Of a stretch of DNA of 64,000 bases, positions 1 through 45,744 are shown in pieces. Every line of letters begins with the position of its first letter. Within the stretch, counting starts at the first letter, position 1. The notes under the pieces are model-generated. The model worked only from the letters and a program-made list of their open reading frames with translations, made no database searches and was not told where the DNA came from. Source of the DNA: an uncultured Spirochaetota bacterium (lineage in GTDB: Bacteria; Spirochaetota; Brevinematia; Brevinematales; JAOACQ01); the NCBI GenBank assembly GCA_963768055.1, contig CAVYGN010000002.1, forward strand, positions 480,001 to 544,000, given 5' to 3'. The position numbers were made by a program, and so were the translations under genes.

Positions 1-708
1 ATTGGCTATTTGAATTGCATAATTACAACTAGCGGCGCCATTCATATTAATAACACTAGTTCCACTAGTGTTCCGGACTTGGAAATTACTATCCCATCCG
101 CCCAGGATATTAATATTTGAATGATCAACATTCAAGTAGAGTCCGGCACTGTCATTAAAAGGGTTGAGTTCACCACCAGCTGTTGTATAAGTCCCCGCCG
201 CTACATAAACATATCCGGGCTGGCCGTTTAATTTAATTATATTGCTTAATGAATTAGCTCCTTGCTGTATAGATTTAAACGGGCTTGCAGGGGTATTTCC
301 TTTATTAGCCGTGTCGCTCCCGCTAGTCGCCACGTACGCCGGCACATTGTAAATAAAATTCTTCGAGTCCTTCACGTTCCCGCTTGAATCTTCGAGCTGG
401 ACTGATACCTTATGAGGTCCGCATGAGAGATTAAGCATGCCGGTCGACCATGCCGGATAGTTCATAGTGGCCAGCATGGAAGTCCCGCCGTCTATCGAAA
501 CATAGACATTGTACCCTTTTACATAAGACGTATAAGTCCCGGTGAAGTTGGTGACGCCCGGGCCGATTATTTCGCTCATCGGCGTGATCCCGTTCGTGGG
601 GCTGCCTCCCACTGCGGCCTTGTTATTGAAGTCGGGGTTGTAGAAGAGCTGGCAGGAAGACATGAGAACTGCTGCTAGAACAGACATTAAAATTTTTAAG
701 TATTTCAT
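1..708 (-). CDS. Lipoprotein, paralogue of 737-2434 (Ig-like N-domain plus start of a beta-helix); 3' end runs off the window
   Basis: Not in the ORF track. Manual translation from ATG 708 (RBS GGAG upstream) gives MKYLKILMSVLAAVLMSS-CQLFYNPDFNNKAAVGGSPTNGITPMSEIIGPGVTNFTGTY..., open to base 1 and near-identical to the N-terminal part of 737-2434. Confidence 0.9.
   Translation of the reverse strand, partial: MKYLKILMSVLAAVLMSSCQLFYNPDFNNKAAVGGSPTNGITPMSEIIGPGVTNFTGTYTSYVKGYNVYVSIDGGTSMLATMNYPAWSTGMLNLSCGPHKVSVQLEDSSGNVKDSKNFIYNVPAYVATSGSDTANKGNTPASPFKSIQQGANSLSNIIKLNGQPGYVYVAAGTYTTAGGELNPFNDSAGLYLNVDHSNINILGGWDSNFQVRNTSGTSVINMNGAASCNYAIQIAN
281..666. repeat. Direct repeat of 2004-2389 (conserved 5' module of the two lipoprotein genes)
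   Basis: Colinear high-identity match at a constant offset of 1723 bp; similarity drops beyond the GNTPASPF codons. Confidence 0.85.
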
Positions 709-736
709 AAATAACTCCAAACTAACCAATTTAATA

Positions 737-2434
737 TTATTGATTAACAATGTTATCCGGCGAGTTTCCGGTGACTATTGCGTTATTAATATAGGCACTT
801 TTATAAGAATAAATACCGCCTCCATTATTGCCGTTTGCCGAATTATTTGTAACAGGGCCGTTAATAACGTCGTTAGTTTCATTATTAAGATAAATCCCGC
901 CACCGCCAATATTTAGGCTGAAATTTTCGGCCACAATAGCGCTAATTATGTTTCCGTAACCAATTGATATAAATAGTCCACCGCCGTTTTGTGCTGAACT
1001 ATTGCTGATTATAGAACCATTTATAGTCACATTTGTTGAACTGAATATACAATAACCTCCCCCTGCCTGCCCCGCCGTCGCATTAGAAATAACGCTTGCA
1101 TTTAAAATATCTTTTAATTCGTCTATAGCATAAATCCCACCGCCATAATTTGCGGAATTGCAGGTTACAAGCGCGTTAATAATGTTGCCGTAGCTGTTCG
1201 TTAAATAAATGCCTCCGCCGTCAACGCTTGAATAATTGTTGCTTATAATTCCGTTAACGGTTATATTAGAGCCGTTTTCTATCGCAATCCCTCCGCCGTT
1301 TACACCGCTCGAACTATTTGAAATTATATTGCCGTTAATGATGTCGTTATATTCATTAGTCAATAAAAGCCCGCCGCCGCCGTCGGCGGTATAAACATAG
1401 TTACAGGTTATCGTTGTATTGATCGTATTATTATAACCTCCGCTTATATATATTCCGCCGCCGCTACAATGTTGTGAATAATTATTACTTATTATTCCGT
1501 TGATTGTATTGTTAAAACTCCCGGTCATATATATTCCGCCGCCGGGATTTTTAGGGGAATTGTTATAAATGCCGGCGGATATGATATTACCGGATGAATT
1601 ATTAATATATATACCACCCAGATTATTCGAAATTATCAGGTTGGTCAATATATTATTGTAAGCATTGTTAATGAACATACCTAAACAATTACCTGCCCTA
1701 CATAAAATAAAACTATCGATTATAACAGCGGTACTTCCTGATATTTGTATAACATTGCGGGAAGCTGATACATTTCCCTCATCAAGAACACATATTCCAC
1801 TCCTGCTTTGATAATTATTGACAAATCCGCCCAGGATGTTAATATACGAATGCGGAGCATTTAAAATAAGTCCATTTAGAGGTGCATTATTAAGACCTGA
1901 TCCCGGTGTATATGTTCCCGCCGCCACGTAAACATAACCCGGGCATGCATTGACCTTCATTAAATTGGTTACAGAATCCGCTCCCGCCTGCAATGAGAGA
2001 AAAGGGCTTGCAGGGGTATTTCCTTTATTAGCAGTATCGCTTCCGCTAGTCGCCACGTACGCCGGCACGTTGTAAATAAAATTCTTCGAATCCTTCACGT
2101 TCCCGCTTGAATCCTCGAGCTGGACGGTGACCTTGTGGGGGCCGCATGACAGATTCAGGCTGCCGGTCGTCCAGGTAGGATAGTTCATAGTTGCCAGCAT
2201 GGAAGTCCCGCCGTCTATAGATACATAGACATTGTATCCTTTTACATAAGACGTGTAGGTCCCGGTGAAGTTGGTGACTCCCGGACCGATTATTTCACTC
2301 ATCGGCGTTATATTGTTCGTGGGGCTGCTACCCGCTAAAGTCTTATTGGTGAAGTCCGGGTTATAGAAGAGCTGGCAGGACGACATGAGCGCCGCAGCGG
2401 CTAAAACCATTATTAAACTATATATTTTTTTCAT
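737..2434 (-). CDS. Lipoprotein with Ig-like domain and right-handed beta-helix (pectin-lyase fold / Pmp-like GGGIY repeats)
   Basis: Lipobox LMSS-C; YVATSGSD..GNTPASPF and YVAAGTY entry motifs; many ~30-aa GGGIY...N.I.G.ISNN repeats. Confidence 0.85.
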   Translation of the reverse strand: MKKIYSLIMVLAAAALMSSCQLFYNPDFTNKTLAGSSPTNNITPMSEIIGPGVTNFTGTYTSYVKGYNVYVSIDGGTSMLATMNYPTWTTGSLNLSCGPHKVTVQLEDSSGNVKDSKNFIYNVPAYVATSGSDTANKGNTPASPFLSLQAGADSVTNLMKVNACPGYVYVAAGTYTPGSGLNNAPLNGLILNAPHSYINILGGFVNNYQSRSGICVLDEGNVSASRNVIQISGSTAVIIDSFILCRAGNCLGMFINNAYNNILTNLIISNNLGGIYINNSSGNIISAGIYNNSPKNPGGGIYMTGSFNNTINGIISNNYSQHCSGGGIYISGGYNNTINTTITCNYVYTADGGGGLLLTNEYNDIINGNIISNSSSGVNGGGIAIENGSNITVNGIISNNYSSVDGGGIYLTNSYGNIINALVTCNSANYGGGIYAIDELKDILNASVISNATAGQAGGGYCIFSSTNVTINGSIISNSSAQNGGGLFISIGYGNIISAIVAENFSLNIGGGGIYLNNETNDVINGPVTNNSANGNNGGGIYSYKSAYINNAIVTGNSPDNIVNQ

Positions 2435-2443
2435 AATTTACTC

Positions 2444-3859
2444 CTAGAACTTGAGGCCTATCGAGGGCGACACGAAGAACTCATTCGCCCCGAAATCGTA
2501 GCTTAAAGCGACCTTTAAATTAAACCATTTCCACTCGCCTACGACAAAAACTCCTGCGGAGTAGCTGTATGTACTGATAGAGGTCATGTTCAGGTAAGCG
2601 GGGTTTATATTGTTAAATGCGTCCGAGGGAAGGTAAATGTAATATGAACCGGTGACGCCCGCCCCGAACCTGAAATCGGTGGACATGTCCCCGTAAAAAT
2701 AATAGCCAATGTCAAGATACGGCGATAATTCGGACAGGGTGGCCGCAAGGGCCTCTGAATAATAAGAGGAATATCCGCTCCCCGCTTCGAGCCATAAATA
2801 CCGCCAGGGGAAATACTCCACGCCGAGGCCGCCGAAGCTGCTTCCCAGGAAGTAGGCCCTCACATGGATAGGCCCTCCCCATTTCTCCGAAGGCGACACA
2901 TGGGTTGTAGCCCCGTCCAGAACATTGAAAGGGGACTTGTAAATAATGTTTGAATTCTGGTCCAGCACGGTCAGGGTATGATTCGAAAGCGCGTTCATAT
3001 TGGTAAATTCCTCATTTTCATATGCGGGGCTGCCGTCGACAAAATAGCTGTATTTCCTGCCCGATATGCCGTAACTCACCGGATCGATTATCACATTGCC
3101 CGTCGCGAAATATGTCACCCCGAAATTCTCCTTCGGGCCGAGGACCCTGGCGGTATTGTAGACGGTCTTTCCATCCTGCGCCCTTATTACGCTTATAGTA
3201 TAGGACTGGCCGCCCAGCACGCTCATGCTCTTTCTATAATCCTGCTTATTGGCGGTATCGATAAATTTATTATTTATATAGATATCGTATTTCCCTGCAC
3301 CGGCCTTGACGTCGAAGTCGATCCTCGCAAGCGAATAATCTATTTTCAGCACGTCTTCTATGACATTTTTAAGGATCATATCGATGCTGTCGAAGATATC
3401 GATATCGGTTGTCGTTACATAGGACCTGGAGAAAATGTTTTTATTTTCAGACTTGGACCACACGCCGATCTTGATCGTCACTTTTTCGGGATTTTTCTGG
3501 ATCAGGTCGTAATCCCCGTAAAGGATATAATCGGCGTCGTACACCACCTTGGGGGCGGTTTCGGCTTTGATCCTCTCCCATTTTGCCAGGACCGGAGAAA
3601 GCCAGAAAAGGTCGTTCATCAGCTTATCGTCGGGGACGTCGAGCGAGGGAATGATCCTCATAAAGTTGTAAATGGACCTGAATACGACAAGCTGGAAAGA
3701 GTTCGATTTCGAGCTCTTGGTGTCCTCGATGGGAAGTATATAGAACTTCGACGCCTGCTTGATGGGAAGCGTCGAATTAGTGAGTGCGTCGCTCCAGGCT
3801 GGGCCTGAAAAGAATATTGATGATGCAAATAATAGGCTATACAAGGCTAAATTTTTCAT
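2444..3859 (-). CDS. Secreted/outer-membrane protein: CsgG/TolB-N-like domain, two PEGA/Ig-like domains, C-terminal beta-barrel
   Basis: Likely start ATG 3859 (GGAGG upstream); signal peptide MKNLALYSLLFASSIFFSGPAWS; about 8 amphipathic C-terminal strands ending ...SIGLKF; homologous to 41876-43231. Confidence 0.7.
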   Translation of the reverse strand: MKNLALYSLLFASSIFFSGPAWSDALTNSTLPIKQASKFYILPIEDTKSSKSNSFQLVVFRSIYNFMRIIPSLDVPDDKLMNDLFWLSPVLAKWERIKAETAPKVVYDADYILYGDYDLIQKNPEKVTIKIGVWSKSENKNIFSRSYVTTTDIDIFDSIDMILKNVIEDVLKIDYSLARIDFDVKAGAGKYDIYINNKFIDTANKQDYRKSMSVLGGQSYTISVIRAQDGKTVYNTARVLGPKENFGVTYFATGNVIIDPVSYGISGRKYSYFVDGSPAYENEEFTNMNALSNHTLTVLDQNSNIIYKSPFNVLDGATTHVSPSEKWGGPIHVRAYFLGSSFGGLGVEYFPWRYLWLEAGSGYSSYYSEALAATLSELSPYLDIGYYFYGDMSTDFRFGAGVTGSYYIYLPSDAFNNINPAYLNMTSISTYSYSAGVFVVGEWKWFNLKVALSYDFGANEFFVSPSIGLKF

Positions 3860-4275
3860 TATGAAAAACCTCCATAAAATTCTTAAGATGCTCATCGCGG
3901 AGACTCCGGCCCCCTGGAATTACCGCGCAATTGCGAATTGAAATAGACACGTTACAAAAGATTTGAGTTTGAAATAATTGTTGATTTTTAATTAGCAGGG
4001 CGAACACCGCTTATGCGAAGCTGCCCCTTAAAAACGGAAGCCCCATCTAATCGCCTGATTATAAATCGGGCGAAAAAAAAGGGCAAATTATTTATTTATA
4101 CGGTAATAATAATGAAATTATTACTATACCTTATATAATACGCGCCGGTTTACAAAAAAATGAAATAATTTGAAAAAATATTCTTCCCCTTACCCGCCTT
4201 CGCGGGCACCCCCAATTGAATTGATAAATATCCCGTCGTTTCTTATAATATCATATTCATTAATCGGGAGTGTTT

Positions 4276-5166
4276 ATGCTGACTTTTCAGGATTTAATAT
4301 TTAAATTAAAAGAATACTGGGGAAAAGAGGGCTGCCTTATCAGGGAACCTTACGACCTTGAAAAGGGAGCCGGGACATTCAATCCCGACACCTTTCTTCG
4401 CTCGCTCGGGCCCGAGCCATGGAAAGTGGCCTATGTAGAACCGTCCCGCCGGCCTGCCGACGGAAGGTACGGAGAAAACCCCAACCGCCTTGGATATTAT
4501 TTCCAGTTCCAGGTAATAATAAAACCGTCTCCCGACAATATCCAGGACCTCTATCTCAAAAGCCTGGAATTCCTGGGGATAGTTTTACAGGAACATGACA
4601 TACGTTTCGTGCATGACGACTGGGAATCCCCCACTCTCGGAGCCTGGGGGCTCGGCTGGGAGGTCTGGCTCGACGGAATGGAGATAACCCAGTTTACATA
4701 TTTTCAGCAGGTGGGGGGGATCGATCTTTCCCCTATCCCCGTGGAGATCACATACGGGACGGAGAGGATCGCAATGTACCTGCAGAACGTCAATCATTAT
4801 AAGAACATCCGGTGGAATTCGGAATTCACCTACGGCGACCTTCATGAGGAACTTGAACAGGAATTTTCAAAGTATAATTTCGAGATAGCCGACATAGATC
4901 TTTACCGGAGACTTTTCGACGATTACGAAGCCGAGTGTTTCAAGACGCTTGGAAAAGACGCCGTCCTCCCGGCTTACGATCTCACGATGAAATGTTCCCA
5001 TGTTTTCAACATTCTTGACGCGAGAGGCGCTATTTCGGTAACCCAGAGAGAGAGCTACATCCTCCGGGTGAGAAAACTAGCTTCGGCATGCGCCGCGGCA
5101 TTTTTAAAGAAAAGGGAGAAGCTCGGCTTTCCTCTATTGAAAAAGAGTTTAGCCCTGACCGCATGA
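4276..5166 (+). CDS. glyQ: Glycine--tRNA ligase alpha subunit
   Basis: [63 protein letters not shown]. Confidence 0.97.
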
Positions 5167-5783
5167 TTAGAAGGAATTTCTCCCTCCCATTCATAAAACC
5201 CGGGATCGGGGACGTCTTCGGCCGTCTTGGATACAACCCGAAGAAATCCAAGCTCGACGACAGGACTCTCAATCTGGTGAAATATGAAATCGATCGCGCA
5301 TTGCGCTTGATGAAACCGGCAGGCATCAGCATCGACTGCGCTGTTTCAGAAAACGTCAATGAAACAGTCATGCTCGACTGCGGGTTAGGTTTTCATTCCA
5401 GGAAACTTTCCCTGATAATGAAAAATTCTTTATCCGCCACGCTGATGGTTTGCACTGTCGGCCCTGAACTGGCGGGCGAGATCGCCGGGTTATCTTCAAA
5501 GGGAGAAATGTCCAGTGCGGTGGTCCTGGATGCGGTTGCCAGCGAATCTGTAGAGGCTTTTGCCGGATATATAACGGATATACTCGCACGGGAAAAGATC
5601 CTGATGAATCTGAAACCGGCAATGAGATTCAGCCCCGGTTACGGAGACCTTAAAACGGATATACAGCCTCTTATCCTCAAGCTTCTCGAAGCCGATAAGA
5701 TCGGGGTTACCTGTCGTCAGGACAGTTTTATCCTGATTCCCGAAAAATCCATAACTGCCATCATAGGATGGGATAAAAAGTAA
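5163..5783 (+). CDS. Stand-alone B12-dependent methionine synthase activation-domain-like protein
   Basis: [37 protein letters not shown] 5163 overlaps the glyQ stop (ATGA). Confidence 0.8.
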
Positions 5784-5903
5784 CCTTATACCGCTTTCAC
5801 ATTTATCAAACACGGTACAATTGATTTATTTCTGAAAATCTGTTAAAATATAATGCTGTTGAATATTTGCCCTATCGGCCCCGGACGGAGGTGATAGGAG
5901 GAC

Positions 5904-6914
5904 ATGGAAAATATCGAATTAAAAAAGGATGTCTATCAAAGCCTCCGGAATGGAGAATTGGGGCCGGCGGAAGAGTTGGTCCTCAAAGGCATGGAAGAGG
6001 ATATTCACAATCCGGACTATGAAAAATTATTAAAAGTTATAAAATTCTGGCAAAACCGCAGGGAACTTTTCAATTTCGAGGGGGGAGGAGGCGAAGTCCT
6101 TATAGGGGAATGGGACAAGTTCCTTGAATTTTGCAAAGACCAGAGTATTGATAATAAAAAAGCCGTTTTATCGATAAAGAATTATGTTTACAGCAGAGCC
6201 GTGGAATTCCTTGTCGAGAGTTACAGGCTCTCCCCGGTCCCGGAAAGGGACACCCTTATCCTTCTGGGCCAGACTTTTTACGAGATTGGTATTCTCGACA
6301 GGGCTGTTGAAACTCTTGAGTATGCCCTGTCGTTGGCGCGAGGGGATGACGATATAAGGATTTACATGCTCCTCGGCGATATCTATTTCGAAATCGGTGA
6401 AAACGATTCGGCTATGGTCATGTTCAATGAGGCTTTTTTGAGGTTCCCCCAGCTTGTGAATATTGAGACAATAGAATATCCCGCCATTAAAAAGCTTCAT
6501 GCCTCGGTTTCCGAAGACGGCTTTTCGGATAATGAGGTCCTCGAGTGGATCTCCGTTTACGGATACCTTTACGAGGGTTTGACGGCCAGAAAAAAGATGG
6601 AATACAACGACTACATGGAAATGAAAGAAAAAATACTGGATTATGAAAAGTCGTTGAAAATCGATAAAAAGGTCAGGAATATTATAGTTCCCAGGCTGAT
6701 TAATTTTTACCTGTGGATCCTTGATTATTATATTTACCAGCTTGGGGCATACCAGACGGCTGAAAATGTCTTAAAGAGAATACAGGACTTGATAAGTATC
6801 GCTAATTGCCGCCCGGAAACGAAAAACAAACTTTCCGGACGGGTGTCGGTTTTATTTAAAAGCCTCCTGGCCAGACAGGATGTAAAAAAAAGCGCCGAAA
6901 AGGCAAACCCCTAA
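5904..6914 (+). CDS. Tetratricopeptide-repeat protein
   Basis: TPR-like LGQTFYEIG..AVETLEYAL and LLGDIYFEIG..AMVMFNEAF; RBS GGAGG. Confidence 0.75.
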   Translation: MENIELKKDVYQSLRNGELGPAEELVLKGMEEDIHNPDYEKLLKVIKFWQNRRELFNFEGGGGEVLIGEWDKFLEFCKDQSIDNKKAVLSIKNYVYSRAVEFLVESYRLSPVPERDTLILLGQTFYEIGILDRAVETLEYALSLARGDDDIRIYMLLGDIYFEIGENDSAMVMFNEAFLRFPQLVNIETIEYPAIKKLHASVSEDGFSDNEVLEWISVYGYLYEGLTARKKMEYNDYMEMKEKILDYEKSLKIDKKVRNIIVPRLINFYLWILDYYIYQLGAYQTAENVLKRIQDLISIANCRPETKNKLSGRVSVLFKSLLARQDVKKSAEKANP

Positions 6915-6926
6915 TAAGGACGGTTT

Positions 6927-7841
6927 ATGTCAATCGTGGCTGTAGGAAGTCTAGCATTCGACAGTATTAATACGGCAAAGGGAAAGAGGGATAGAATTCT
7001 CGGCGGTTCCCTGACCCATTTCGCAAACGCCGCCAGTTTTTTATCAAAACCGGACCTGGTAGGCGTTGTCGGCGGAGATTTCAACGAAGATCACTGGAAT
7101 TTTTTAAAATCAAAAGCAAACAGTACCGAAGGGATAAGCCTGTTAAAAGATGAAAAGTGTTTCTTCTGGGAGGGCGTATACTCTGAGGATTACGAAAAAC
7201 GGGAAACAATTACAACAGAACTTAACGCCTTCGCCAAATTCGACCCGATCGTTCCGGATTCCTATACAAACAGGCCTTTCATCCTTTTTTTAGCCAATAT
7301 AGACCCGTTAATACAGAAAAAGGTCGTTCTGCAAAGTAAGAAAAGCACTTTAAAGATCCTCGACACAATGAATTTCTGGATACTCAATAACTATGACAAC
7401 CTCTCCCTTGTTCTCGGCCTGGTTGACGGTATCATAGTTAATGAAGAGGAAGCGTTCCTCCTGACAGGCCAGAAGAACATTGTAAGGGCTGCTGAAAAAT
7501 TGTTCAGGCCTAATTTCAAAATGATCATTGTAAAAAAAGGCTCCAACGGGGTCATGGTTTTCGGTAAGGATTTTATTATATCGCTCCCTTCATATCCCCT
7601 GCGGGATATCACCGATCCTACCGGCGCCGGAGACAGTTTCGCAGGAGCTTTTATAAGCTACCTTGACCGCCTTGGGACGAGGTTTTATGACCGTCGAAGT
7701 CTTAAAAATGCGGCCGCTTATGCGACTGTAGTTGCATCATTCACTGTAGAGGATTTCGGGGTCGACGGGCTTAAAGGGATTTCAAAAAATGATATAAATA
7801 AGCGCCTGCGCGAATTCCGTAACATAACGTCTTTCAAATAA
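6927..7841 (+). CDS. PfkB-family carbohydrate/nucleoside kinase
   Basis: VGSLAFD, LGGS, NEEEA, KKGSNG, DPTGAGDSFAG. Confidence 0.9.
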   Translation: MSIVAVGSLAFDSINTAKGKRDRILGGSLTHFANAASFLSKPDLVGVVGGDFNEDHWNFLKSKANSTEGISLLKDEKCFFWEGVYSEDYEKRETITTELNAFAKFDPIVPDSYTNRPFILFLANIDPLIQKKVVLQSKKSTLKILDTMNFWILNNYDNLSLVLGLVDGIIVNEEEAFLLTGQKNIVRAAEKLFRPNFKMIIVKKGSNGVMVFGKDFIISLPSYPLRDITDPTGAGDSFAGAFISYLDRLGTRFYDRRSLKNAAAYATVVASFTVEDFGVDGLKGISKNDINKRLREFRNITSFK

Positions 7842-7862
7842 ATAACAGGGAGTGAAACAGAA

Positions 7863-10574: not shown

Positions 10575-10721
10575 TTAATGGGCCCTTCTAAAAACTGCCC
10601 CTTTGGGGCAGCAAGGTAGGGCCCATAGGGCGGAATTATTAGCTTCAATTTTTTTAAATTTTTGAAGAGGTGAGTTTTTGGAACCACCCTAATGAAATAA
10701 AATTAAAAATAGGAGGGAAGA

Positions 10722-10991
10722 ATGCCTCTTTGGGTTACATTGCCGATTCAAATGGTAGTAGGGGCTCTCGCCGGCCTTTATTACATAAGAATTATGAAGA
10801 AGCCCATGTTCGGACAGCTCTGGGGAGCGGTAGTTTTCGGGGTTGTCGGCGGTATTCTGGGCGGGTTTTTCCTGGGCAGCCTTACTGAAATCACCCAATT
10901 TCTTGTAAAGAACTTTTTATCCGTCGATTTCGTGGCAACCCTGTTCGGAGCGTTCTCGCTTCTCTGGCTGTTTTCAAAGATCGCACATTGA
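10722..10991 (+). CDS. Small membrane protein (GlsB/YeaQ/YmgE-like)
   Basis: Three Gly-rich hydrophobic segments (GVVGGILGG); RBS AGGAGG. Confidence 0.65.
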   Translation: MPLWVTLPIQMVVGALAGLYYIRIMKKPMFGQLWGAVVFGVVGGILGGFFLGSLTEITQFLVKNFLSVDFVATLFGAFSLLWLFSKIAH

Positions 10992-11017
10992 TAAAAATAA
11001 TTCTGGAGGTTTAAACT

Positions 11018-11422
11018 ATGGCAAACGAATTAGATGAAGTTAAGGTAGGTAAAATCGGCATTCAAAAACCTCTTACCGTCACCCTCGATATGCCGGTTTC
11101 TAAGGCCGCTGAAAAGATGCTTCGTGAAAAGGAGCATAGCGTAATTGTAGTCGATAAGACAGCCAAGCCTGTCGGAATAGTATCCTCATGGGATATATTG
11201 AAGATCACCTTTTTAGCCGACAGCGCGAGAGAAATGCAGGTATCCAAGCTTATTGAAGGGCAGAAGCTTTTGTTCGTCTATACCGAGGTCAGCGTCAGGG
11301 ACGCGCTTAATCTGATGATTGAAAAATCGGTCAGCGCCCTGCCTATCCTTGACGAAGGCGATAATCTTATCGGTAAAGTCAGCCTTTCGGATGTAGCCAA
11401 GTTCGTTAAAGAAAAATTATAG
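11018..11422 (+). CDS. CBS-domain pair protein
   Basis: Two CBS repeats (VIVVD..PVGIVSSWD; LPILDE..LIGKVSLSD). Confidence 0.88.
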   Translation: MANELDEVKVGKIGIQKPLTVTLDMPVSKAAEKMLREKEHSVIVVDKTAKPVGIVSSWDILKITFLADSAREMQVSKLIEGQKLLFVYTEVSVRDALNLMIEKSVSALPILDEGDNLIGKVSLSDVAKFVKEKL

Positions 11423-11441
11423 CTTTTCTTCGGGAGATTCT

Positions 11442-14482: not shown

Positions 14483-14490
14483 CCTATCAC

Positions 14491-33785: not shown

Positions 33786-33818
33786 AAACCCCGCCCTTTT
33801 AAAGGAGCGGGGTTTTTT
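33786..33818. terminator. Intrinsic terminator, possibly bidirectional, between convergent genes
   Basis: AAACCCCGC...GCGGGGTTT stem followed by a T-run. Confidence 0.8.
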
Positions 33819-33834
33819 ATTTCTTACGATCAAG

Positions 33835-35151
<1,317 letters not shown>

Positions 35152-35361
35152 TTATTATTTTAATCATATTTGTCACAGTATCGATATGACAATAACTATT
35201 TATGATAGGCCTTAAAAAAATAAAAGTCAAAAAGCAGGAGTAAAGTAAAATTGAAACCGGGGGGACGTGTCTTCGCGGACCGTCCCCCCAAAAATTTGTT
35301 TTTTTATTCCCTTCTGACTATTCTATAAATAATTGAGGTATAAATAATCGAGGTATCACCA

Positions 35362-38300: not shown

Positions 38301-39717
38301 ATGGATTTCATATTACCCGGCTGTCGATACCGCGCTTATACCCGGTATGTTAGGGCTTTCAAAAACAGATATCGCTGAAATCCTGGGCGATTTATCCGAA
38401 TCGGGAGAAATTATTATCGATGAATTGATCGAAGGGTCGCAAGAGATCTATGCGGCCGAGAGGACTAACCTCGAGACCCTTCTAAGGATCTTGAGAAAAG
38501 AAAGAAGGCCGGCTTTCAAGGCTCTTCCCCTGGAAACGCTGCAGCTTTTTCTTGCAAGCCACCAGGGTCTGACGAACAGGGACCAGTCGATCGAGGGTTT
38601 GAAAAAGGACCTTGAAAGATTGTTTGGTTATCCGCTGGACGCTCAGGCCTGGGAGGAATCGATATTCCCGGCAAGGCTCTCGCCGTATTATCCGGCATGG
38701 CTGGACAGCCTTCTTCAAAACACGGGATTATTATGGTTCGGCTGCGGTAAAAAGAAGCTGTCTTTCGCTTTCCCGGAAGATATCGGGATATTTACCGGCC
38801 CAGGGGAATCCGGCGAAGCGGAAGAGCTGCCTGACAGGGAAAGGCATTACGATTTTTTTGAGCTAACTTCGATCATGAATACGACTACAGCGAAAGCGGC
38901 CGGAAAGATATGGAGCATGGTATGGAAGGGGCTGATCTCCAACGAATCATTCGAGGCGGTCAGAAAGGGGATCCGGAACAAATTCACCGCTGAAGTTGTT
39001 CTGGAGCAGGGCAATAAAGGTCAAAGGTCCCTCCGGAGCAGATGGGAATCCGGCAGGCCTCTGGCCGGCAAGTGGTACGCCCTTCCAAAATCCACCGATG
39101 CCGACGACCTGATCACTGCCGCTGAAAATCAGAAAAACATGGCCAGGGTCCTATTCGACAGGTACGGCATCGTTTTCAGGGAAATATTAATGAATGAAAT
39201 GCCCTTACTCCGATGGGCAAGCCTCTTGAAGACATTCCGCCTTATGGAACTTTCGGGAGAGATCCTGTCGGGTTATTTTTTTAAAGGGATACCGGGAGCC
39301 CAATTCGCCTCGCATGAGGCTTACCGCGAGCTTCTCAGGAAACTTCCTTATGACCATGTTTACTGGCTTTCAGCTATCGATCCGGCATCCCTTTGCGGAA
39401 CCGGGCTTGAAGGGATAAGCGCTTATTATCCCGCCAGGATACATGCAAATTTTATGGTCTTTCACGGAGATAAGCTGGTAATGACAATCGGAAGGTCGGG
39501 AAAATACCTTGAATTCAAAGTCGGGCCCGGTCATCCAAATATAGAAAGATACCTTGAGGTTATTAAAGTGCTGCTGACCAGGGAATTCAAACCCTATTCT
39601 TCCGTAAGAGTGGAAAAAATAAACGGAATTGCTGCGGATGAAAGCCCTTACCGCGACCCACTTATCAAGTTCGGCTTCAAATCAAGCTATAAAGGCATTG
39701 AGATCTGGAGGTATTAG
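35362..39717 (+). CDS. lhr: Lhr-family SF2 helicase, full length
   Basis: APTGTGKT, ITTPESL, DEIH, HHGS, TSSLELGIDIG, QRIGRAGH, GTIPDRG, C-terminal RYGIVFRE and GAQFA. Confidence 0.92.
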   Translation: MDPLSLFHPSVKKWFEEKIGSPTEIQQKAWPLIAGGSHVLMSAPTGTGKTLAAFLWAINQLIAGKWEKGKTSILYISPMKALNNDIRKNLLIPVEQIGAGINVFVRSGDTPSGERRRMLIRPPEILITTPESLNILLTSKNSFYLFENLKTVILDEIHAIAGSKRGTLLISSVERLTRISGEFQRIVLSATIRPIEVIAGWAGGKRDMRIVEASKSKKYEINIKFPADAGKKMIDNSIWPPLIEEFRKLIKSRNSTLLFTNSRRLTEKTSRLINENEPEIIAYSHHGSISKELRLEVEDKLKQGKLKAIVATSSLELGIDIGELDQVILIQTPRSVSSALQRIGRAGHRVGLVSRGCLFPTHGRDFIDAAVLARAVEDYEIEPVKPVENPLDLLSQIVLSMSAVEDWKVDDLFGFIKTIYPYRNLSHKQFILVLNMLSGRYSGSRIKELKPRISIDKLNNTIKAMDGAASLVYLSGGTIPDRGYYDLRMQDTHSKIGELDEEFVWERKIGDTFSLGPAVWRIRNITNTDVLVNPVDSAPNIIPFWKAEDSDRGFFFFEKVGLFLEKATEMLGENNSFRNLLMSEYSMDEASSEELALFLESQIKFTNSPLPGRHLVLAEHVKNPVPGDNSEIVLHTLWGGRINRPFSFILSAAWQDKFGYPIEVMANDDSILIMLPHSFKIDDVLELLYSADLESLLKKSLENTGYFGAHFRENAGRALLLPKRGFNSRVPLWLNRLRSKKLLEAVHSYQDFPVTIETWRECLLDEFDLENLKKLIDEIHTGDIKISEIYTPSPSPFCGNIIWRQKNKYVYEDDTPSPSGVSSLSDDLFREILGEAGLRPLIPRETVSLMNQKLKRTYPGYSPQNYGDLLEWVKERLLINCNEWDELANSIDPGIRTVFPDRYESRILSLKPPLSKYRLVCAAENLPLISSFYNLQPDELDICLMPEGRPDSAFIRNIFKTLSGEVPESVLQDRGRFFLQWISYYPAVDTALIPGMLGLSKTDIAEILGDLSESGEIIIDELIEGSQEIYAAERTNLETLLRILRKERRPAFKALPLETLQLFLASHQGLTNRDQSIEGLKKDLERLFGYPLDAQAWEESIFPARLSPYYPAWLDSLLQNTGLLWFGCGKKKLSFAFPEDIGIFTGPGESGEAEELPDRERHYDFFELTSIMNTTTAKAAGKIWSMVWKGLISNESFEAVRKGIRNKFTAEVVLEQGNKGQRSLRSRWESGRPLAGKWYALPKSTDADDLITAAENQKNMARVLFDRYGIVFREILMNEMPLLRWASLLKTFRLMELSGEILSGYFFKGIPGAQFASHEAYRELLRKLPYDHVYWLSAIDPASLCGTGLEGISAYYPARIHANFMVFHGDKLVMTIGRSGKYLEFKVGPGHPNIERYLEVIKVLLTREFKPYSSVRVEKINGIAADESPYRDPLIKFGFKSSYKGIEIWRY

Positions 39718-40229
39718 CCCCCCATCGGGGCTTTCTTCCTGCTGTCGATATAAACAAGCAGGACTATGATAATAAACCCGGCGGTCACATACATATCGGC
39801 AAAATTCAAAATCCCGGTCCTGAAAACCGGACCGATCCCCATGTTCAGGAAATCGATAACCCGGCGGTTGTTAAAGAATCTGTCGATAACTACATTATTC
39901 ATCCCCCCCGTTAAGATCAGGGAGAACGCGGTTGCCTGGCCGGCGGTAATCTTTTTCGATAAGATTATATAAATAAAAAGTATTATAAGAAAAGCTGCAG
40001 GCAACAATCCCAGGAGGATAAACCCGGCAACCGGAGGGAGGTTCTCTCCCATGGAGAGGAAGGCGCCCGAATTTTCAGAGTACTGTATCCTCAAAGTGTC
40101 GAACAGGTATGAATAAGTTTGTCCTCCCGAAAGCTTTTCTTTTGCGATGGCCTTTGTAACGCGGTCCAGCGCGGTACCAGCCGCGAGAATGCTGAACAGG
40201 ATTATCAGTCTTGGGATTAATTTCATCAC
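39714..40229 (-). CDS. lspA: Lipoprotein signal peptidase II
   Basis: DRVTK, ENSGAFLS, N..IDR, VIDF, NFADM. Confidence 0.9.
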   Translation of the reverse strand: MMKLIPRLIILFSILAAGTALDRVTKAIAKEKLSGGQTYSYLFDTLRIQYSENSGAFLSMGENLPPVAGFILLGLLPAAFLIILFIYIILSKKITAGQATAFSLILTGGMNNVVIDRFFNNRRVIDFLNMGIGPVFRTGILNFADMYVTAGFIIIVLLVYIDSRKKAPMGG

Positions 40230-40258
40230 CCGGCTCCGCTTTATTTATTCAAGGAGTT

Positions 40259-40287
40259 ATTGTATTGTTTTACCCGTAATTTGTCAA
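40259..40287 (-). promoter_or_regulatory. sigma70 promoter of lspA
   Basis: TTGACA-N17-TACAAT on the minus strand. Confidence 0.7.
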
Positions 40288-40325
40288 TGCGGCAGCAGGA
40301 ACATTTGCGGTGATCCCCGTTGTTT

Positions 40326-41723
40326 TTACTTATGGGAAGACTTTGATAGATACTCCGTCGGGGTCATACCCGTGATCTTTTTGAACGCCGTGTAAAAAGT
40401 GGATTTGGAATTGAAACCCGAATCGTATGCGATCTGGAGAATATTGCCGTTATGTGAATTTGAATTCATCAGCCTTTTTGCTTCCTTGATACGGTAGGTG
40501 CTGAGAAAATCATAAAATTTTTGTTTTATATATTCATTCAGGATAATGGAAAGGCGCGTCCGGGGGATAGATAGCATTTCGGAGAGGCCCGGGAGGGTCA
40601 GATCGGGTCTTAAATAGGGCTTCTCGGTTTCCATTATTTTTTCTATCTCAAGGATATCGCTTGCAATTAATTCCGGATCTATCTGATTTTTATCTTTAAC
40701 CTGAAGGTTTGTTATCACTATAGTTTTTCCTGTGACATGATCCTTATAATCGCGTAAATAAAACACCTGGGTTTTGAGTAAATGCGGGCCGTCGGGTGAT
40801 TCGATCCTGATATCCGTTTGAAACCGGTCGGACGACCCGGCTGATTTCAGGATTTCAGGAAAAACAGACGCGATTTGCCCAAATGGTTTCCCGATACTTT
40901 TTTTATTCAATCCCTTTAATATTTTTTGAGTTCCGGGGGTAAAATCGACAATATCGTCATTGTTATCGAGGATTATCATATCGTTGGTAACGGTTTCCAG
41001 AATAGTTTTCCATTTTAACGGTTGACTTTCGAACAATCGGTACCTGACCAGTCCTAAAGCGAAAAGGGGCCCGACTATGGCCAGGACAATCGGATTATAA
41101 TCCAGCCCCTTTAATATAAAGATATAGCTGACTTGAGAAAAAACATACCCAACCCAGGGTATGAGGGAAGCGACCATCATAATACCGGCCTGCTTTCTGA
41201 AAATTTCGGCCGATTGGAAATAAACGGTTATAATAAGGATGTTTCCTGCTAATACACAAAGGCTTAGGTAAATGACAAAAAGCCAGTAAAACATGCCTTT
41301 AGTAAATGTAACTACCGGATAAGGATTGGCGGGATCGATGAAGGTGGTTTTATAGGTAAGGTGAAAATATTCGTCGGTAAGCTTCAGAAATATTCCGATT
41401 AAAGGAATTATTATAAGGGAAATAACAGTCCATTTATTAAGATAGCGGCTTTTACCGCTGTATATTAAAGCAAGGATTATAAAGCAGGGGCCGAAAAACC
41501 ATGCCCCTATACAGTAGAAATCCACCCAGAATATTTTGCCCGCTAAAGAAGGGGTGATCATTTGGAACGCATGACCGGAAGAGTAAACCGCCAGGCTGAA
41601 CATCAGAAATGAAAAAGCCTTCCTGCCTATTAAGAATCCGCTTAAAGCGCCGTATAACCCCAGTGATAATAACATCATAGTGGAAAGAATCAATAATATG
41701 AAAATGTAGATCCAGGGTATCAT
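40326..41723 (-). CDS. Membrane one-component regulator: HisKA_7TM-like sensor, PAS-like domain, AraC HTH
   Basis: Seven hydrophobic segments ending RYRLF; MIILDNNDDIVDF; C-terminal PYLRPDLTL..LS, RIKEAK, IAYDSGFNSKSTFYTAFKKITGMTPTEY. Confidence 0.85.
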   Translation of the reverse strand: MIPWIYIFILLILSTMMLLSLGLYGALSGFLIGRKAFSFLMFSLAVYSSGHAFQMITPSLAGKIFWVDFYCIGAWFFGPCFIILALIYSGKSRYLNKWTVISLIIIPLIGIFLKLTDEYFHLTYKTTFIDPANPYPVVTFTKGMFYWLFVIYLSLCVLAGNILIITVYFQSAEIFRKQAGIMMVASLIPWVGYVFSQVSYIFILKGLDYNPIVLAIVGPLFALGLVRYRLFESQPLKWKTILETVTNDMIILDNNDDIVDFTPGTQKILKGLNKKSIGKPFGQIASVFPEILKSAGSSDRFQTDIRIESPDGPHLLKTQVFYLRDYKDHVTGKTIVITNLQVKDKNQIDPELIASDILEIEKIMETEKPYLRPDLTLPGLSEMLSIPRTRLSIILNEYIKQKFYDFLSTYRIKEAKRLMNSNSHNGNILQIAYDSGFNSKSTFYTAFKKITGMTPTEYLSKSSHK

Positions 41724-41875
41724 CTGACCCTCTGAAAAATAAAATTTCTATGATTTAAAAAATTATAGCGTTAAGAAAAAAATAATACAAGCAATAGTCC
41801 GAATGAATACAGCCGGACGACAAACCCGTATTTATCGCTTAAAATAACATGAAATCATAGAGGATAATAAGATTT

Positions 41876-43231
41876 ATGTTTTTAAAAGCCTTTTTTTATG
41901 CGGCGCTAATTTTTATTTTCACGGCCGCAGTTTATGCCGAAGATAGCGGAAAACGGGAAAAGGTCGTCATACTGCCGTTTCAAAATGATACGGATACTAA
42001 ACAGTTCAAAAACTCCGGTGTTTTCAGGAAAATATTTTCCAGAACTTTTTTTACATTCATAAGCATCCTGCCGGTCATCGACGTTCCCGACATGGGCAGG
42101 ACTAACGACATAGCTGTTTCATTCTCCAATATCCAGGCTTTTTCCGACAGTGAAAAGGCGAGGATCGTCATTTACGGACGCTACCGTTTATCGGGTCCGA
42201 AAGCAAATCCCAAAATCATCGCGGAACTTACGGCTTATGACGGCGCCGGGAGGACCAATATTTTCAGTAAAATTTATGAAACAACGACCGGACCCGATGT
42301 TTTCGAGGATATAGAAAATATGATCTCCGAAGTCATGAAAAGTTCCCTGAATATCGACGTGAAAAACATCGCCGCCATAAACTTCATGAATTTCAGGATC
42401 GCCAACGAAACATACCAGCTTTATGTGAACGGCCGCCTGATTGCATCCCCGTCCAACACCAACTTTTCACTTGTTTTGAGGGTCATGCCTCAAACAAACT
42501 ATTCAATTTTACTAAAACAGCCGGGGGGCAGGACCGTTCTTAAAACCGATGTAAGACTTGCCCTCAACGGCTCGACCAATATAGGCTATTCGGGGTACGG
42601 GTCCGTCAGGATCGGGGGGATCTATTTGAAAGACCGGTTAAAAACCTACGGCCTCTTTTTTGACAGCGGACAAGTTTCCGAGAACAGCTATCTTTCAAAT
42701 GTTCCCACCGCTTATGCACATAATTTAACCCTTGCTGAAAACCTTACAAACACAAACTACACAACTAATATCGACGTGTACGATAATCAGATCACTGCAG
42801 TCACGCCCGCGGCCGGGGCTTACGGGAGCCTCCATGCAGAACTGTTAAGCCTGGATTTCGATATGGCAAGCCTTATATTTGAGTTTTTCCCTTTCGACCG
42901 CTATTTCTTTGTCGGAGCCGGGGGGGGCTTTTATTACGCTGCCGGTTATTACTACGATATATCCCCCCTTTTAGAAATAGGCTATTACTGGATAGGAGAT
43001 ATGGCATATAATTTCCGTATCGGGACGGGGATTATCGGCAGGGCCAATCTTGCCCTGCCCCTGGGTGCAGACCCGGTTCCCGGCAGCGTAACCCCGGCTC
43101 TGTTCAATATCGGGCTTTTTATCAGCATCGATTTCTATTTCCTGACTTTACGCCCCGAGTGTTATGTTTACCGGAACGACAGCGGGCAGTTCACTTTCTC
43201 ATATACAGCCGCGGTCGGCCTGCATTTTTAG
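41876..43231 (+). CDS. Secreted/outer-membrane protein: CsgG/TolB-N-like domain, two PEGA/Ig-like domains, C-terminal beta-barrel (paralogue of 2444-3859)
   Basis: Signal peptide ..AVYA; VVILPFQN; DVPD; ISPLLEIGYYWIGDM..FRIG matches LSPYLDIGYYFYGDM..FRFG; terminal GLHF. Confidence 0.7.
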   Translation: MFLKAFFYAALIFIFTAAVYAEDSGKREKVVILPFQNDTDTKQFKNSGVFRKIFSRTFFTFISILPVIDVPDMGRTNDIAVSFSNIQAFSDSEKARIVIYGRYRLSGPKANPKIIAELTAYDGAGRTNIFSKIYETTTGPDVFEDIENMISEVMKSSLNIDVKNIAAINFMNFRIANETYQLYVNGRLIASPSNTNFSLVLRVMPQTNYSILLKQPGGRTVLKTDVRLALNGSTNIGYSGYGSVRIGGIYLKDRLKTYGLFFDSGQVSENSYLSNVPTAYAHNLTLAENLTNTNYTTNIDVYDNQITAVTPAAGAYGSLHAELLSLDFDMASLIFEFFPFDRYFFVGAGGGFYYAAGYYYDISPLLEIGYYWIGDMAYNFRIGTGIIGRANLALPLGADPVPGSVTPALFNIGLFISIDFYFLTLRPECYVYRNDSGQFTFSYTAAVGLHF

Positions 43232-43247
43232 TAGAATGGAGCGGCAT

Positions 43248-44399
43248 ATGTTTAATAAAATCGCTTTAATAATAGTCCATAATATCCCGGTGCTGTTAAT
43301 ACCCGCTTTATTATCATGCCAGCTCTTCTACGCTCCGGGGGCTTACGACAAGCTGAACACGTCCTCGTCCTCATCCTCATCTTCATCTCCTGTCATAACC
43401 AACTCGGTTACGAACGTGACATTGTATATCGCTGGCCAGGATCCTGCGGGTGGAGCCCTCTGGACGGTAACCATGAATGGAACGGTTACGAATATCGTTA
43501 AAACCGTCATGCCGAATTCGGTTTCGGCAAGCTGGGTGGCTCTTAACGGAGATACTCTCTATATCGCAGGGAGAAGCGGGGTCTCGCCGAACTATTACGG
43601 CTGTTACTGGACGGTTAAGACAAACGGAGGCACTCCGGTTGAAAACGATGTAACTCCGGTAGATATAACCGGCGGTTACGGTTGCGATCTTTTTTGGATC
43701 GGGTTCGACCCTAATGGAAACCTTTGCTGCACCGGCGATGATGAAAACGATTATCAGTGCTATTGGCTGAACGGCATCAAATATACTGAAAATAGTGCAA
43801 TGTGGGGGATGCCGTACAATCTCGTATTTTCAGGCGGCAATTACTATACCGTAGGGTACAACAACGGCAGCACGACTTCGTGGCTATGCATAAATAACCC
43901 TGTTCAAATATCAATACCGGGCGCAGGGTGGTATCTCGGCGGATTGGTCGTAAATAACGGCGTCATATATGTAAGCGGTACAATGAGTTCCGTTGGAAAT
44001 TCATCTGTATGGATATCTTCGAACAGCGGCGCTACATTCAACACCATCCCGTTGAACGGGACAGTTAATAGTTTCTCATATCCATGCTATTCCGGTTCTT
44101 ATCTGTATTCGCCCGGCATTTCGGCTTCCTCTTATCCATGTTACTGGACTTTAGACAGCCATGGAAATACGAGTCAGATAATACTTGATCATGTTTCCAC
44201 CGGAGAGGTCCAGTTTATAATTGTAACAAACAACACCGTCTTTTCCGCCGGATATGACAATAGTCAACCGGTTTACTGGATCGGCACAAGCGAATATATC
44301 CTCGATACCGGTGCCATATATGATATGATAGGCTTAGTCGTAACATATAATATCGTTAATACGTACCTGCCGCAGGGGAAGAACGGAAAAACACGCTGA
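43248..44399 (+). CDS. Lipoprotein with poly-Ser linker and putative beta-propeller (copy 1)
   Basis: Likely start ATG 43248 (GGAG RBS); lipobox LLS-C; repeated blades LYIAG...CYW. Confidence 0.8.
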   Translation: MFNKIALIIVHNIPVLLIPALLSCQLFYAPGAYDKLNTSSSSSSSSSPVITNSVTNVTLYIAGQDPAGGALWTVTMNGTVTNIVKTVMPNSVSASWVALNGDTLYIAGRSGVSPNYYGCYWTVKTNGGTPVENDVTPVDITGGYGCDLFWIGFDPNGNLCCTGDDENDYQCYWLNGIKYTENSAMWGMPYNLVFSGGNYYTVGYNNGSTTSWLCINNPVQISIPGAGWYLGGLVVNNGVIYVSGTMSSVGNSSVWISSNSGATFNTIPLNGTVNSFSYPCYSGSYLYSPGISASSYPCYWTLDSHGNTSQIILDHVSTGEVQFIIVTNNTVFSAGYDNSQPVYWIGTSEYILDTGAIYDMIGLVVTYNIVNTYLPQGKNGKTR

Positions 44400-45744
44400 T
44401 TTACTCCTTTGCGTCGGTCGTCTTTGTCCCATTATAGGACGAATTTGATTAAAATCCATTTGATAATAAAATAATAATGAATTATAATTTTATTAAGAAT
44501 ATTATTCTCGACCGGTTTGCATTACTTAAAGAAAAATGAGGAAATATGTTTAAAAAAATTATTTTATCATACATGAGATTTATCCCGGCGCTGTTAATAC
44601 CCGCTTTATTTTCATGCGAGCTCTTCTACGCCCCGGGGGCTTACGACAAGCTGAACTCGTCCTCATCCTCATCCTCATCTTCATCTCCTGTCATAACCAA
44701 CTCGGTTACGAACGTGACATTGTATATCGCTGGCCAGGATCCTGCGGGTGGAGCCCTCTGGACGGTAACCATGAATGGAACGGTTACGAATATCGTTAAA
44801 ACCGTCATGCCGAATTCGGTTTCGGCAAGCTGGGTGGCTCTTAACGGAGATACTCTCTATATCGCAGGGAGAAGCGGGGTCTCGCCGAACTATTACGGCT
44901 GTTACTGGACGGTTAAGACAAACGGAGGCACTCCGGTTGAAAACGATGTAACTCCGGTAGATATAACCGGCGGTTACGGTTGTTCTCTTTTTTGGATCGG
45001 GTTCGACCCCAATGGAAACCTTTGCTGCACCGGCGATGATGAAAACGATTATCAGTGCTATTGGCTGAACGGCATCAAATATACTGAAAATAGTGCAATG
45101 TGGGGGATGCCGTACAATCTCGTATTTTCAGGCGGCAATTACTATACCGTAGGGTACAACAACGGCAGCACGACTTCGTGGCTATGCATAAATAACCCTG
45201 TTCAAATATCAATACCGGGCGCAGGGTGGTATCTCGGCGGATTGGTCGTAAATAACGGCGTCATATATGTAAGCGGTACAATGAGTTCCGTTGGAAATTC
45301 ATCTGTATGGATATCTTCGAACAGCGGCGCTACATTCAACACCATCCCGTTGAACGGGACAGTTAATGATTGCGCATATCCATGCTATTTCGGTTCTTAC
45401 CTTTATTTGCCCGGCATTTCGGCTTCCTCTTATCCATGTTACTGGACTTTAGACAGCTATGGAAATACGAGCCAGGTAATACTTGATCATGTTTCCACCG
45501 GAGAGGTCAAGTTTATGATTGTAACAAACAATACCGTCTTTTCCGCCGGAATTGACAATAGTCAACCGGTTTACTGGATCGGCACAAGCGAATATATCCT
45601 CGATACCGGTGGTAATGGTATAGGCTTAGTCGTAACATATAACATCGTTAATACGTACCTGCCGCAGGGGAAGAACGGAAAAACACGCTGATTTACACCT
45701 TTGCCTCGGTCGTCTTTGTCCCATTATAGGACGAATTTGATTAA
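43283..45744 (+). repeat. Near-identical direct repeat: 43283-44452 and 44581-45744
   Basis: Offset 1298 bp (1292 after a 6-bp indel). The repeat starts inside the signal-peptide codons and extends ~50 bp past the stop codons. Confidence 0.95.
44546..45691 (+). CDS. Lipoprotein with poly-Ser linker and putative beta-propeller (copy 2)
   Basis: Lipobox LFS-C; near-identical to copy 1. Confidence 0.8.
   Translation: MFKKIILSYMRFIPALLIPALFSCELFYAPGAYDKLNSSSSSSSSSSPVITNSVTNVTLYIAGQDPAGGALWTVTMNGTVTNIVKTVMPNSVSASWVALNGDTLYIAGRSGVSPNYYGCYWTVKTNGGTPVENDVTPVDITGGYGCSLFWIGFDPNGNLCCTGDDENDYQCYWLNGIKYTENSAMWGMPYNLVFSGGNYYTVGYNNGSTTSWLCINNPVQISIPGAGWYLGGLVVNNGVIYVSGTMSSVGNSSVWISSNSGATFNTIPLNGTVNDCAYPCYFGSYLYLPGISASSYPCYWTLDSYGNTSQVILDHVSTGEVKFMIVTNNTVFSAGIDNSQPVYWIGTSEYILDTGGNGIGLVVTYNIVNTYLPQGKNGKTR

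Follow-up and report, generated by a model that had tools for sequence, protein, structure and literature searches.

Why should lipoproteins with unrelated bodies begin with the same dozen residues, counted from the lipidated cysteine, and what has the secreted protein encoded in front of them to do with this? The question is raised by a 64,000-nucleotide (nt) stretch of DNA from an uncultured bacterium of Brevinematales, an order of Spirochaetota (contig CAVYGN010000002.1, positions 480,001 to 544,000; hereafter the window). The open reading frames (ORFs) of the window form two loci of the same layout, each with a secreted protein of about 450 amino acids (aa), here named the partner, and two lipoproteins behind it on the same strand. 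A sequence-only reading of the window had taken the partner for a barrel/CsgG-like protein that recognizes the common N-terminal tag and exports or anchors interchangeable passengers. We found that partner and tagged lipoprotein are best explained as a two-part outer-membrane module specific to part of Brevinematales, and the cassette looks like an undescribed way to dock lipoproteins with exchangeable bodies at the outer membrane; the literature searched contained no account of the pairing. The host genome, named G000, has two contigs, 3.69 Mb, 41% G+C and a completeness of 94.75%. Coordinates are window positions, other G-numbers denote related genomes and L-numbers the loci examined.

Partner genes and tagged lipoproteins

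Partner A is encoded at 2444..3859 on the minus strand and has 471 aa when read from the ATG at 3859, or 483 aa from the first ATG at 3895. It contains a signal peptide without lipobox, a TolB-N/CsgG-like N-terminal domain (N-domain), two beta-sandwiches and a C-terminal 8-stranded barrel with F as the last residue, and the family profile matched it over its full length. Lipoprotein A1 (737..2434, minus strand, 565 aa) begins 9 nt past the partner stop and consists of the lipobox, the tag, an Ig-like region and a right-handed beta-helix; its tag, the 12 codons from the lipidated Cys at 2342..2377 on the minus strand, reads CQLFYNPDFTNK. Its tandem paralogue A2 (1..710, minus strand) is cut by the window start, with the tag Cys codon ending at 654; in the genome it has about 500 aa and its mature N-terminus is CQLFYNPDFNNK. 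On the plus strand, partner B (41876..43231, 451 aa, signal peptide at residues 1-21) is followed by lipoprotein B1 (43248..44399), whose likely start at 43248, in an ORF spanning 43164-44399, lies 16 nt past the partner stop. B1 carries a lipobox, the tag (43317..43352, plus strand, Cys codon at 43317; CQLFYAPGAYDK), a poly-Ser linker and a body, and lipoprotein B2 (44546..45691, plus strand) is its tandem duplicate, with the tag CELFYAPGAYDK at 44615-44650.

The two partners are homologous from end to end as had been read from the window (27% identity over 452 columns, E 8e-38), and the lipoproteins resemble each other within each locus, with 93% identity between B1 and B2 and 72% between A1 and A2 across the 235 A2 residues inside the window. 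When A1 was compared with B2, the signal peptide and tag alone aligned (13/34, E 0.013), and thus the lipoprotein bodies of the two loci are unrelated and only the tag is common, again as first described. The four mature N-termini of the window share C-[QE]-L-F-Y-x-P-x-x-x-[ND]-K. The A bodies had been described as Ig plus beta-helix; in A1 the Beta_helix match exceeded its Pfam cut-off (30.9 bits against 25.9, E 2.5e-7), and the Ig-like Big_13 match, at 19 bits, stayed under the cut-off of 27. The B1 and B2 bodies, first read as putative beta-propellers, matched no family in a Pfam search. Identical terminator-like hairpins lie 3' of B1 (44423-44443) and B2 (45715-45735), and a promoter-like site agreeing at 11/12 positions lies 5' of B2 (44460-44488), each from a consensus scan with counts not clearly above shuffled controls. 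Their recurrence suggests that the tandem duplication carried its own punctuation along.

Pfam and NCBIfam searches matched no family to the window partners. An exhaustive search of 1.84 billion proteins with a partner profile built from seven sequences gave only 210 representatives at E <= 0.001, against 6 from a word-based search. The profile matched 19 of 41 related genomes, distributed over the families f1 (10/11), f2 (1/1), f3 (2/2), f5 (4/4) and, weakly, f7 (1/6), and had no match in the genomes searched from f4 (0/4) or f6 (0/12). Among 251 genomes sampled over the phylum, 28 matched at E <= 1e-8; whole-profile matches in the sample were confined to f1, f2, f3 and f5, four families of Brevinematales, and beyond the order the N-terminal part alone matched, at most profile positions 1-240.

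The gene pairing was followed at 39 partner loci, namely five in G000, its 324-aa short variant and the full-span matches of related genomes including one split gene. Full-span matches are those that begin at about profile positions 1-30 and reach position 420 or beyond; shorter and unlisted rows were excluded, and one further locus on a short contig was left unjudged. A tagged lipoprotein was found directly downstream on the same strand at 30 of the 39 loci (16 genomes, four families), mostly across gaps of ~10 to 30 nt or with an overlap; a small ORF intervenes at one of the 30 (L038), and at another (L047) the lipoprotein has a non-standard start and was read by translation. Tandem second lipoprotein copies were also seen in other genomes (L023, L025, L026, L031).

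Decayed partners occur at L049, L062 (G003) and L004 (G000:C1:1116131-1117471), and the downstream tagged lipoprotein is still intact in each case. Three forms of decay were seen once each: a split into two ORFs, a 149-aa remnant joining N- and C-terminal pieces, and a frame open for 454 aa whose ATG/GTG/TTG-started ORF runs from profile position 83 only.

The alignment of 21 mature N-termini gave the consensus C-x-L-F-x-P-P-G-x-Y-x-K with a nearly invariant Pro at +7. Overall, the tag of ~12 residues is aromatic and proline-rich, with the consensus C-x-L-F-[YF]-P-P-G-x-Y-[DNE]-K. In an alignment of 25 signal peptides with their tags, the information content was 3.0 bits at L+3, 3.2 at F/L+4, 3.6 at P+7 and ~2.2 at the aromatic position +10, compared with 1.2 to 2.2 bits per column across the hydrophobic signal-peptide core; the tag is thus more tightly constrained than the leader in front of it. 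A six-frame regular-expression search of the 3.69-Mb genome gave 119 matches to C-x-L-F-[YFW], and only the four window lipoproteins combine C-[QE]-L-F-Y with a preceding signal-peptide-like stretch and a long ORF, which excludes a chance origin of the window motif.

The tag was also found to be rare among lipoproteins of G000 rather than a general feature of them: eight lipoproteins carry it, against 198 crude lipoprotein predictions, and seven of the eight adjoin a partner. A relaxed tag pattern occurred in 9 of these 198 predictions, made with a predictor that misses some lipoproteins including B1 and B2; four of the nine are cassette members, and the other five are unlike the full tag except for the partly tag-like C1:346812. 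When a signal-peptide-plus-tag profile was run on five genomes, 28 matches at E <= 1e-4 reached the tag, and 25 of them adjoin an intact or remnant partner gene or the first copy of a tandem, the other three being orphans. Because this profile was built from partner loci, its informative part is how few matches lie elsewhere. Thus, the association of tag and partner in this genome and its relatives, which the sequence-only reading had anticipated, was borne out with few orphans, and the tag is found on unrelated proteins while tracking the presence and neighbourhood of one partner gene, in the sense of PEP-CTERM and exosortase.

Fold of the partner

The AlphaFold2 model of partner B, made from a 33-row alignment, had a mean pLDDT of 87.4 and a pTM of 0.60. 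It comprises a signal helix, an alpha/beta N-domain (about residues 25-160, encoded at 41948-42355), two beta-sandwiches (about residues 163-315, 42362-42820) and a barrel (about residues 316-451, 42821-43228) of eight long strands at residues 319-450, all on the plus strand. In an exhaustive structural search the barrel matched best the N-terminal domain of OprF (4rlc_A; Z 15.1, root-mean-square deviation (rmsd) 3.0, 123 of 135 residues aligned) and also OmpW, NspA, OmpA and PagL. OmpA is an 8-stranded barrel, and the eight antiparallel strands of the partner B model close a small barrel of the OmpA/OprF type. Both window partners end in F, the family consensus being G-x-x-F, and a C-terminal aromatic residue is usual in outer-membrane barrel proteins as the BAM signal. 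Under the standard topology of even-stranded barrels, the N-terminal 300 residues of the partner would be periplasmic.

The N-domain has the fold of the TolB N-terminal domain, PelC, CsgG, LpoB, FlgT and HpaA, with Z scores of 13.8 for TolB, 11.7 for CT253, 10.4 for PelC, 9.7 for CsgG and 9.4 for LpoB, and a Foldseek run on partner B agreed (TolB 3.4e-8, PelC 7.5e-5). CsgG (6lqh_A) aligned with model residues 26-161 over 118 residues at an rmsd of 3.7; because TolB-N, PelC and LpoB score as well or better, this match is of a shared fold only. CsgG (PF03783) had no match at E <= 1 in either window partner and none in NCBIfam, and no LpoB or TolB_N match was found in Pfam. Furthermore, the window partners have signal peptides ending in ...VYA/ED and ...AWS/D, with no Cys and hence without the lipobox of the lipoprotein CsgG. 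PEGA (PF08308) did not match the window partners, a distant paralogue matching at 0.073, and a protein-language-model atlas placed the partner near Spirochaetota clusters with PEGA, CsgG, LpoB, and PEGA + OMP_b-brl_2, which is taken as a lead only.

Thus, the first description of the partner as barrel/CsgG-like is right at the level of folds, for the N-domain and for the C-terminal barrel, and the barrel itself appears in the model as 8-stranded and OmpA/OprF-like, of the small anchor type and not a CsgG- or Slam-like channel. A barrel of this kind would favour anchoring or docking over export, so that of the two functions first proposed, which the pairing and the interchange of passengers support in common, anchoring is preferred.

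Exchange of passengers and modules

For grouping of the passengers, the first 25 mature residues were removed and bodies without a BLASTP match at 1e-5 were assigned to different groups, by which 29 bodies fell into 16 unrelated groups. Pfam searches identified right-handed beta-helix, Kelch and RCC1 propellers, CBM_4_9, FGE-sulfatase-like and Golvesin_C passengers, and 6 of the 15 passengers in one Pfam scan matched no family. Ser/Gly-rich linkers stand right behind the tag in many passengers, and several have no flexible linker. With pairing across four families and 16 body groups, the proposed link of the partner to interchangeable passengers was upheld.

In a maximum-likelihood tree of 37 partners, the types of tag were found to follow well-supported partner clades. 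One clade (100/100) goes with C-[QGS]-L-[FL]-x-[ND]-[PQ]-[DGN]-[FY]-x-[ND]-[KR], the clade of partner B with ...P-P-G-x-Y-D-[KN]-L and the partner clade of f5 with C-[SQ]-[LI]-[FL]-H-F-..., and the A-type and B-type dialects coexist in G000. The same body may occur with different tags. At L020, where the partner is of clade A, the B1-like body carries N-P-D-F-x-N-K, and in window B1, where the partner is of clade B, it carries P-G-x-Y-D-K-L. The body of A1, a beta-helix, occurs also in a distant partner clade with the tag of that clade (L027, L028), and a third body group is likewise split over two partner clades. Since one body takes the local tag in each clade, the exchange junction lies just behind the tag, which stays when the body is replaced.

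Short relatives of the partner were found in six genomes of f2, f3 and f5. They have 247-267 aa, match the profile at ~242-454 only and correspond to the last beta-sandwich with the barrel, the N-domain being absent. All five short-partner loci that were fetched (247-256 aa; L063-L067, at G017:C30, G013:C25, G012:C14, G019:C60 and G015:C29) have a tagged, propeller-like lipoprotein immediately upstream, with stop and start abutting or overlapping. Because these minimal cassettes keep the tag, it travels with the beta-sandwich and barrel module and the N-domain is not needed for the pairing. This arrangement of genes points to the same module as the putative cognate of the tag. The minimal cassettes lie directly downstream of an OEP (TolC-like) gene in 5/5 loci, with an AcrB-family match near L063-L065, where the fetched stretch reached that gene, and a link of minimal cassettes to RND efflux systems is possible.

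The reverse arrangement was seen in paralogues that lack the barrel. These are lipoproteins in which the N-domain and first beta-sandwich are fused to a C-terminal head, with no tagged neighbour, and the fused heads (CBM_4_9, of which four are in G000, CBM_11, FGE-sulfatase, SBP_bac_1, SBP_bac_8, ankyrin repeats and PMP repeats) are of the same kinds as the passenger heads. The combination of the same scaffold and kinds of head in fused and split forms supports scaffold and passenger as one unit. The scaffold, a CsgG/LpoB-like domain with beta-sandwiches, has expanded to more than 15 paralogues in G000. Two near-identical paralogues of the N-domain only (G000:C1:1466118-1466684 and C1:666250-666816) contain one in-frame TGA each and are followed by similar ORFs of 215-230 aa; the region is repeated, and the pair could be pseudogenes or parts of two-gene arrangements.

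Partners of 633-650 aa with a second tandem copy of the barrel are present at L041 (G017:C1) and L051 (G013:C17), next to lipoproteins with RCC1 propellers and the deviant tag C-A-[IL]-[FV]-P-G-[YW]-F. This two-barrel variant is modelled as two 8-stranded, OmpA-like barrels; its halves matched 8-stranded barrels at Z 14.9 and 12.2, and the whole matched TamA at 9.0 and BamA at 7.7; a single 16-stranded pore is therefore not favoured for the variant.

Proposed docking at the outer membrane, its alternatives and related systems

As the best reading of these results, to which we give slightly more than even credence, the tag mediates docking of interchangeable lipoproteins at the outer membrane. 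The partner would be exported by Sec, and its C-terminal OmpA-like barrel of eight strands would insert it in the outer membrane, with the beta-sandwiches and the TolB-N/PelC/CsgG/LpoB-like N-domain hanging beneath. The membrane-proximal beta-sandwich and barrel module of the cognate partner would then capture the lipidated, aromatic and proline-rich tag, and this capture could dock a variable head (beta-helix, Kelch or RCC1 propeller, CBM or FGE-sulfatase-like) to the scaffold through a linker that is often Ser/Gly-rich. Three lines of evidence suggest docking, because the tag follows the partner clade, the minimal cassette maps the cognate module and the paralogues fuse the scaffold to like heads. 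We infer that the two proteins bind physically, through a site in this module, and that the complex lies on the periplasmic face of the outer membrane. This side is favoured because of the topology of even-stranded barrels and the solute-binding heads of fused paralogues. When partner B (residues 22-451) and the N-terminal 40 residues of mature B1 were modelled as a complex, without controls, the scores were 0.00 and 0.01, the mark being 0.32; this result speaks neither for nor against the binding.

Several observations weigh against docking by a neighbouring partner. Nine of the 39 partner loci have no tagged neighbour (L006, L018, L021, L022, L024, L036, L040, L043, L044), L018 having a weakly tag-like lipoprotein upstream instead, and at least five tagged lipoproteins are orphans (G000 C2:925238-926212, L057, L058, L059, L060), so that recognition, if any, must also occur in trans, or else the tag has another reader. 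Adjacent genes are co-inherited, and the agreement of tag and partner clade alone is therefore no proof of recognition. The two grounds for a periplasmic placement, the usual topology of barrels and the solute-binding heads of the fused paralogues, are indirect, and beta-helix and CBM heads are also typical of surface proteins. Finally, the domains of partner B are confidently modelled and their mutual placement is less certain, as the pTM of 0.60 indicates. As to the orphans themselves, the one in G000, located outside the window, has no adjoining partner; it contains a poly-Ser linker and its body is B1-like, and similar ones occur in G001 (L057, L058, L060) and G003 (L059). L059 and L060 are weaker profile matches with a clear tag, and at L061 the gene in front is a distant paralogue resembling the partner.

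Dedicated surface display or export, in which the partner, alone, as an oligomer or during folding by BAM, would carry the whole tagged lipoprotein, or the lipidated N-terminus of it, to the cell surface, shares the gene pairing, tag and passenger interchange with docking and is in our judgement unlikely. Beta-helix, CBM and propeller heads are common on surfaces, poly-Ser/Gly linkers come right after the tag in many passengers, and the fold of the N-domain is common to PelC and CsgG, components of outer-membrane secretion that form rings. In one version the lipoprotein and barrel would form an interlocked complex like RcsF with OmpA/OmpC/OmpF, and according to the accessible part of PMC11784454 BamA places RcsF on the surface through the lumen of outer-membrane proteins (OMPs). 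Such export agrees poorly with a barrel that has only 8 strands in both models, which seems too small for a translocon, and whose best matches are anchors of the OmpA/OprF/OmpW type and not translocons of 14 to 16 strands; even in the two-barrel variant the halves resemble 8-stranded barrels more than the whole resembles TamA or BamA. Furthermore, several passengers lack a flexible linker, and the fused paralogues include solute-binding proteins, which act in the periplasm. We give similarly low credence to a self-contained surface-lipoprotein system of spirochaetes, in which BAM would fold the module around or next to its cognate tag and linker, the interlocked complex would expose the interchangeable heads or the lipidated tag on the cell surface, and paralogues would read different dialects.

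That the tag is instead a sorting signal for general machinery, such as Lol-type release or retention or another translocon, with the partner as a co-expressed companion and not a receptor, would account for the orphan tagged lipoproteins and appears less probable still. Residues just after the lipidated Cys are the classic sorting positions. The accessible text of PMC11784454 cites such work. In G000, 94.75% complete, LolA (PF03548) and LptD (PF04453) had no Pfam match at E <= 0.001; the lack of a LolA match leaves room for unusual trafficking, and both negatives may reflect divergent envelope trafficking or merely divergent sequences. A general signal, however, would be expected on more than eight lipoproteins against 198 crude predictions and not mostly beside a partner (7/8), a single general receptor would not require the A-type and B-type dialects within G000, and the minimal cassettes retain the tag alongside the barrel module. 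That the common N-terminus is a historical by-product of cassette duplication and 5'-end recombination, which kept the leader while bodies were swapped, much as happens in families of variable lipoprotein genes, and involved no recognition, fits the recent tandem duplicates (93% and 72% identity) with their duplicated terminator-like and promoter-like elements and the ongoing rearrangement seen in partner remnants and split partners, but it is very improbable because the tag is kept at the protein level across families whose partners share ~21 to 30% identity, exceeds the adjoining signal-peptide core in conservation and is retained in the minimal cassettes, where the gene order is inverted.

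The cassette was compared with the known ways in which lipoproteins are handled at the outer membrane. In its logic it comes closest to Slam and the surface lipoproteins encoded next to it, to RcsF and the barrels that it joins, and to PelC with PelB. The Slam (type XI) systems of TbpB, fHbp and HpuA resemble the cassette in that a barrel with a periplasmic domain is encoded beside the interchangeable lipoproteins that it serves. The DUF560 barrel of Slam has 14 strands and is combined with TPR repeats, and the signal that Slam reads is in the C-terminal barrel domain of the cargo. In contrast, the partner has 8 strands, a periplasmic part of TolB-N-like domain and beta-sandwiches, and the signal at the N-terminus of the lipoprotein; a search with Slam/SlipAM PF04575 gave no match in G000 and none in the control genomes either. 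The PelC, CsgG, LpoB and TolB N-terminal domains share the fold of the N-domain, and several of them are located beneath the outer membrane, some as rings. Unlike these, the partner has no lipobox and is predicted to be anchored by a separate OmpA-like barrel, and the N-domain is absent from minimal cassettes. The CsgG channel is a 36-stranded oligomer made from hairpins of the alpha/beta domain, whereas the partner monomer model has a separate C-terminal 8-stranded barrel. In the searches made, the partner sequence showed none of the features that define CsgG or Slam, and the likeness is one of folds only.

In the Bacteroidota lipoprotein export signal and in the tether and LptD-dependent lipoproteins of Borrelia, as here, residues after the lipidated Cys decide the fate of the protein. 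Those signals are short, charged or disordered and are read by general machinery. The tag differs in being aromatic and proline-rich, rare in the genome and tied to a specific neighbouring gene. The Borrelia system dealt with in the accessible part of PMC13078400 is a different one. RcsF, as described in the accessible part of PMC11784454, is assembled by BamA with OmpA/OmpC/OmpF and joined to them via the segment after its lipid anchor, as proposed for the tag, and it has no dedicated co-encoded barrel and no conserved tag on unrelated passengers. Among spirochaetal proteins, T. pallidum TP0923 is a predicted PEGA-domain beta-barrel OMP (PMC13749626, accessible part), which by description alone resembles the partner as beta-sandwich plus barrel and for which that part of the source names no lipoprotein partner with a tag; a distant relationship in architecture is possible. 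Thus, a dedicated outer-membrane partner for co-encoded lipoproteins is known, and the tag, the partner architecture and probably the mechanism are new.

How diderms, notably spirochaetes, decide the destination of lipoproteins is only partly understood, and the spirochaetal surface-lipoprotein flippase is described as elusive and debated in the accessible part of PMC11784454. The cassette offers a compact candidate pair of a 12-residue tag and a module of ~200 residues, and gives a first functional context to an otherwise unannotated scaffold, the CsgG/LpoB-like domain with beta-sandwiches. The natural tag dialects, with A-type and B-type in one genome, and the passenger swaps make a clean test system for docking or display, and if docking is true the tag could also become a portable handle by which proteins are attached to an anchor in the outer membrane.

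Divergent from partner B, the window encodes a 465-aa multi-pass membrane protein (40326-41723, minus strand), the C-terminus of which resembles an AraC-type helix-turn-helix by eye.

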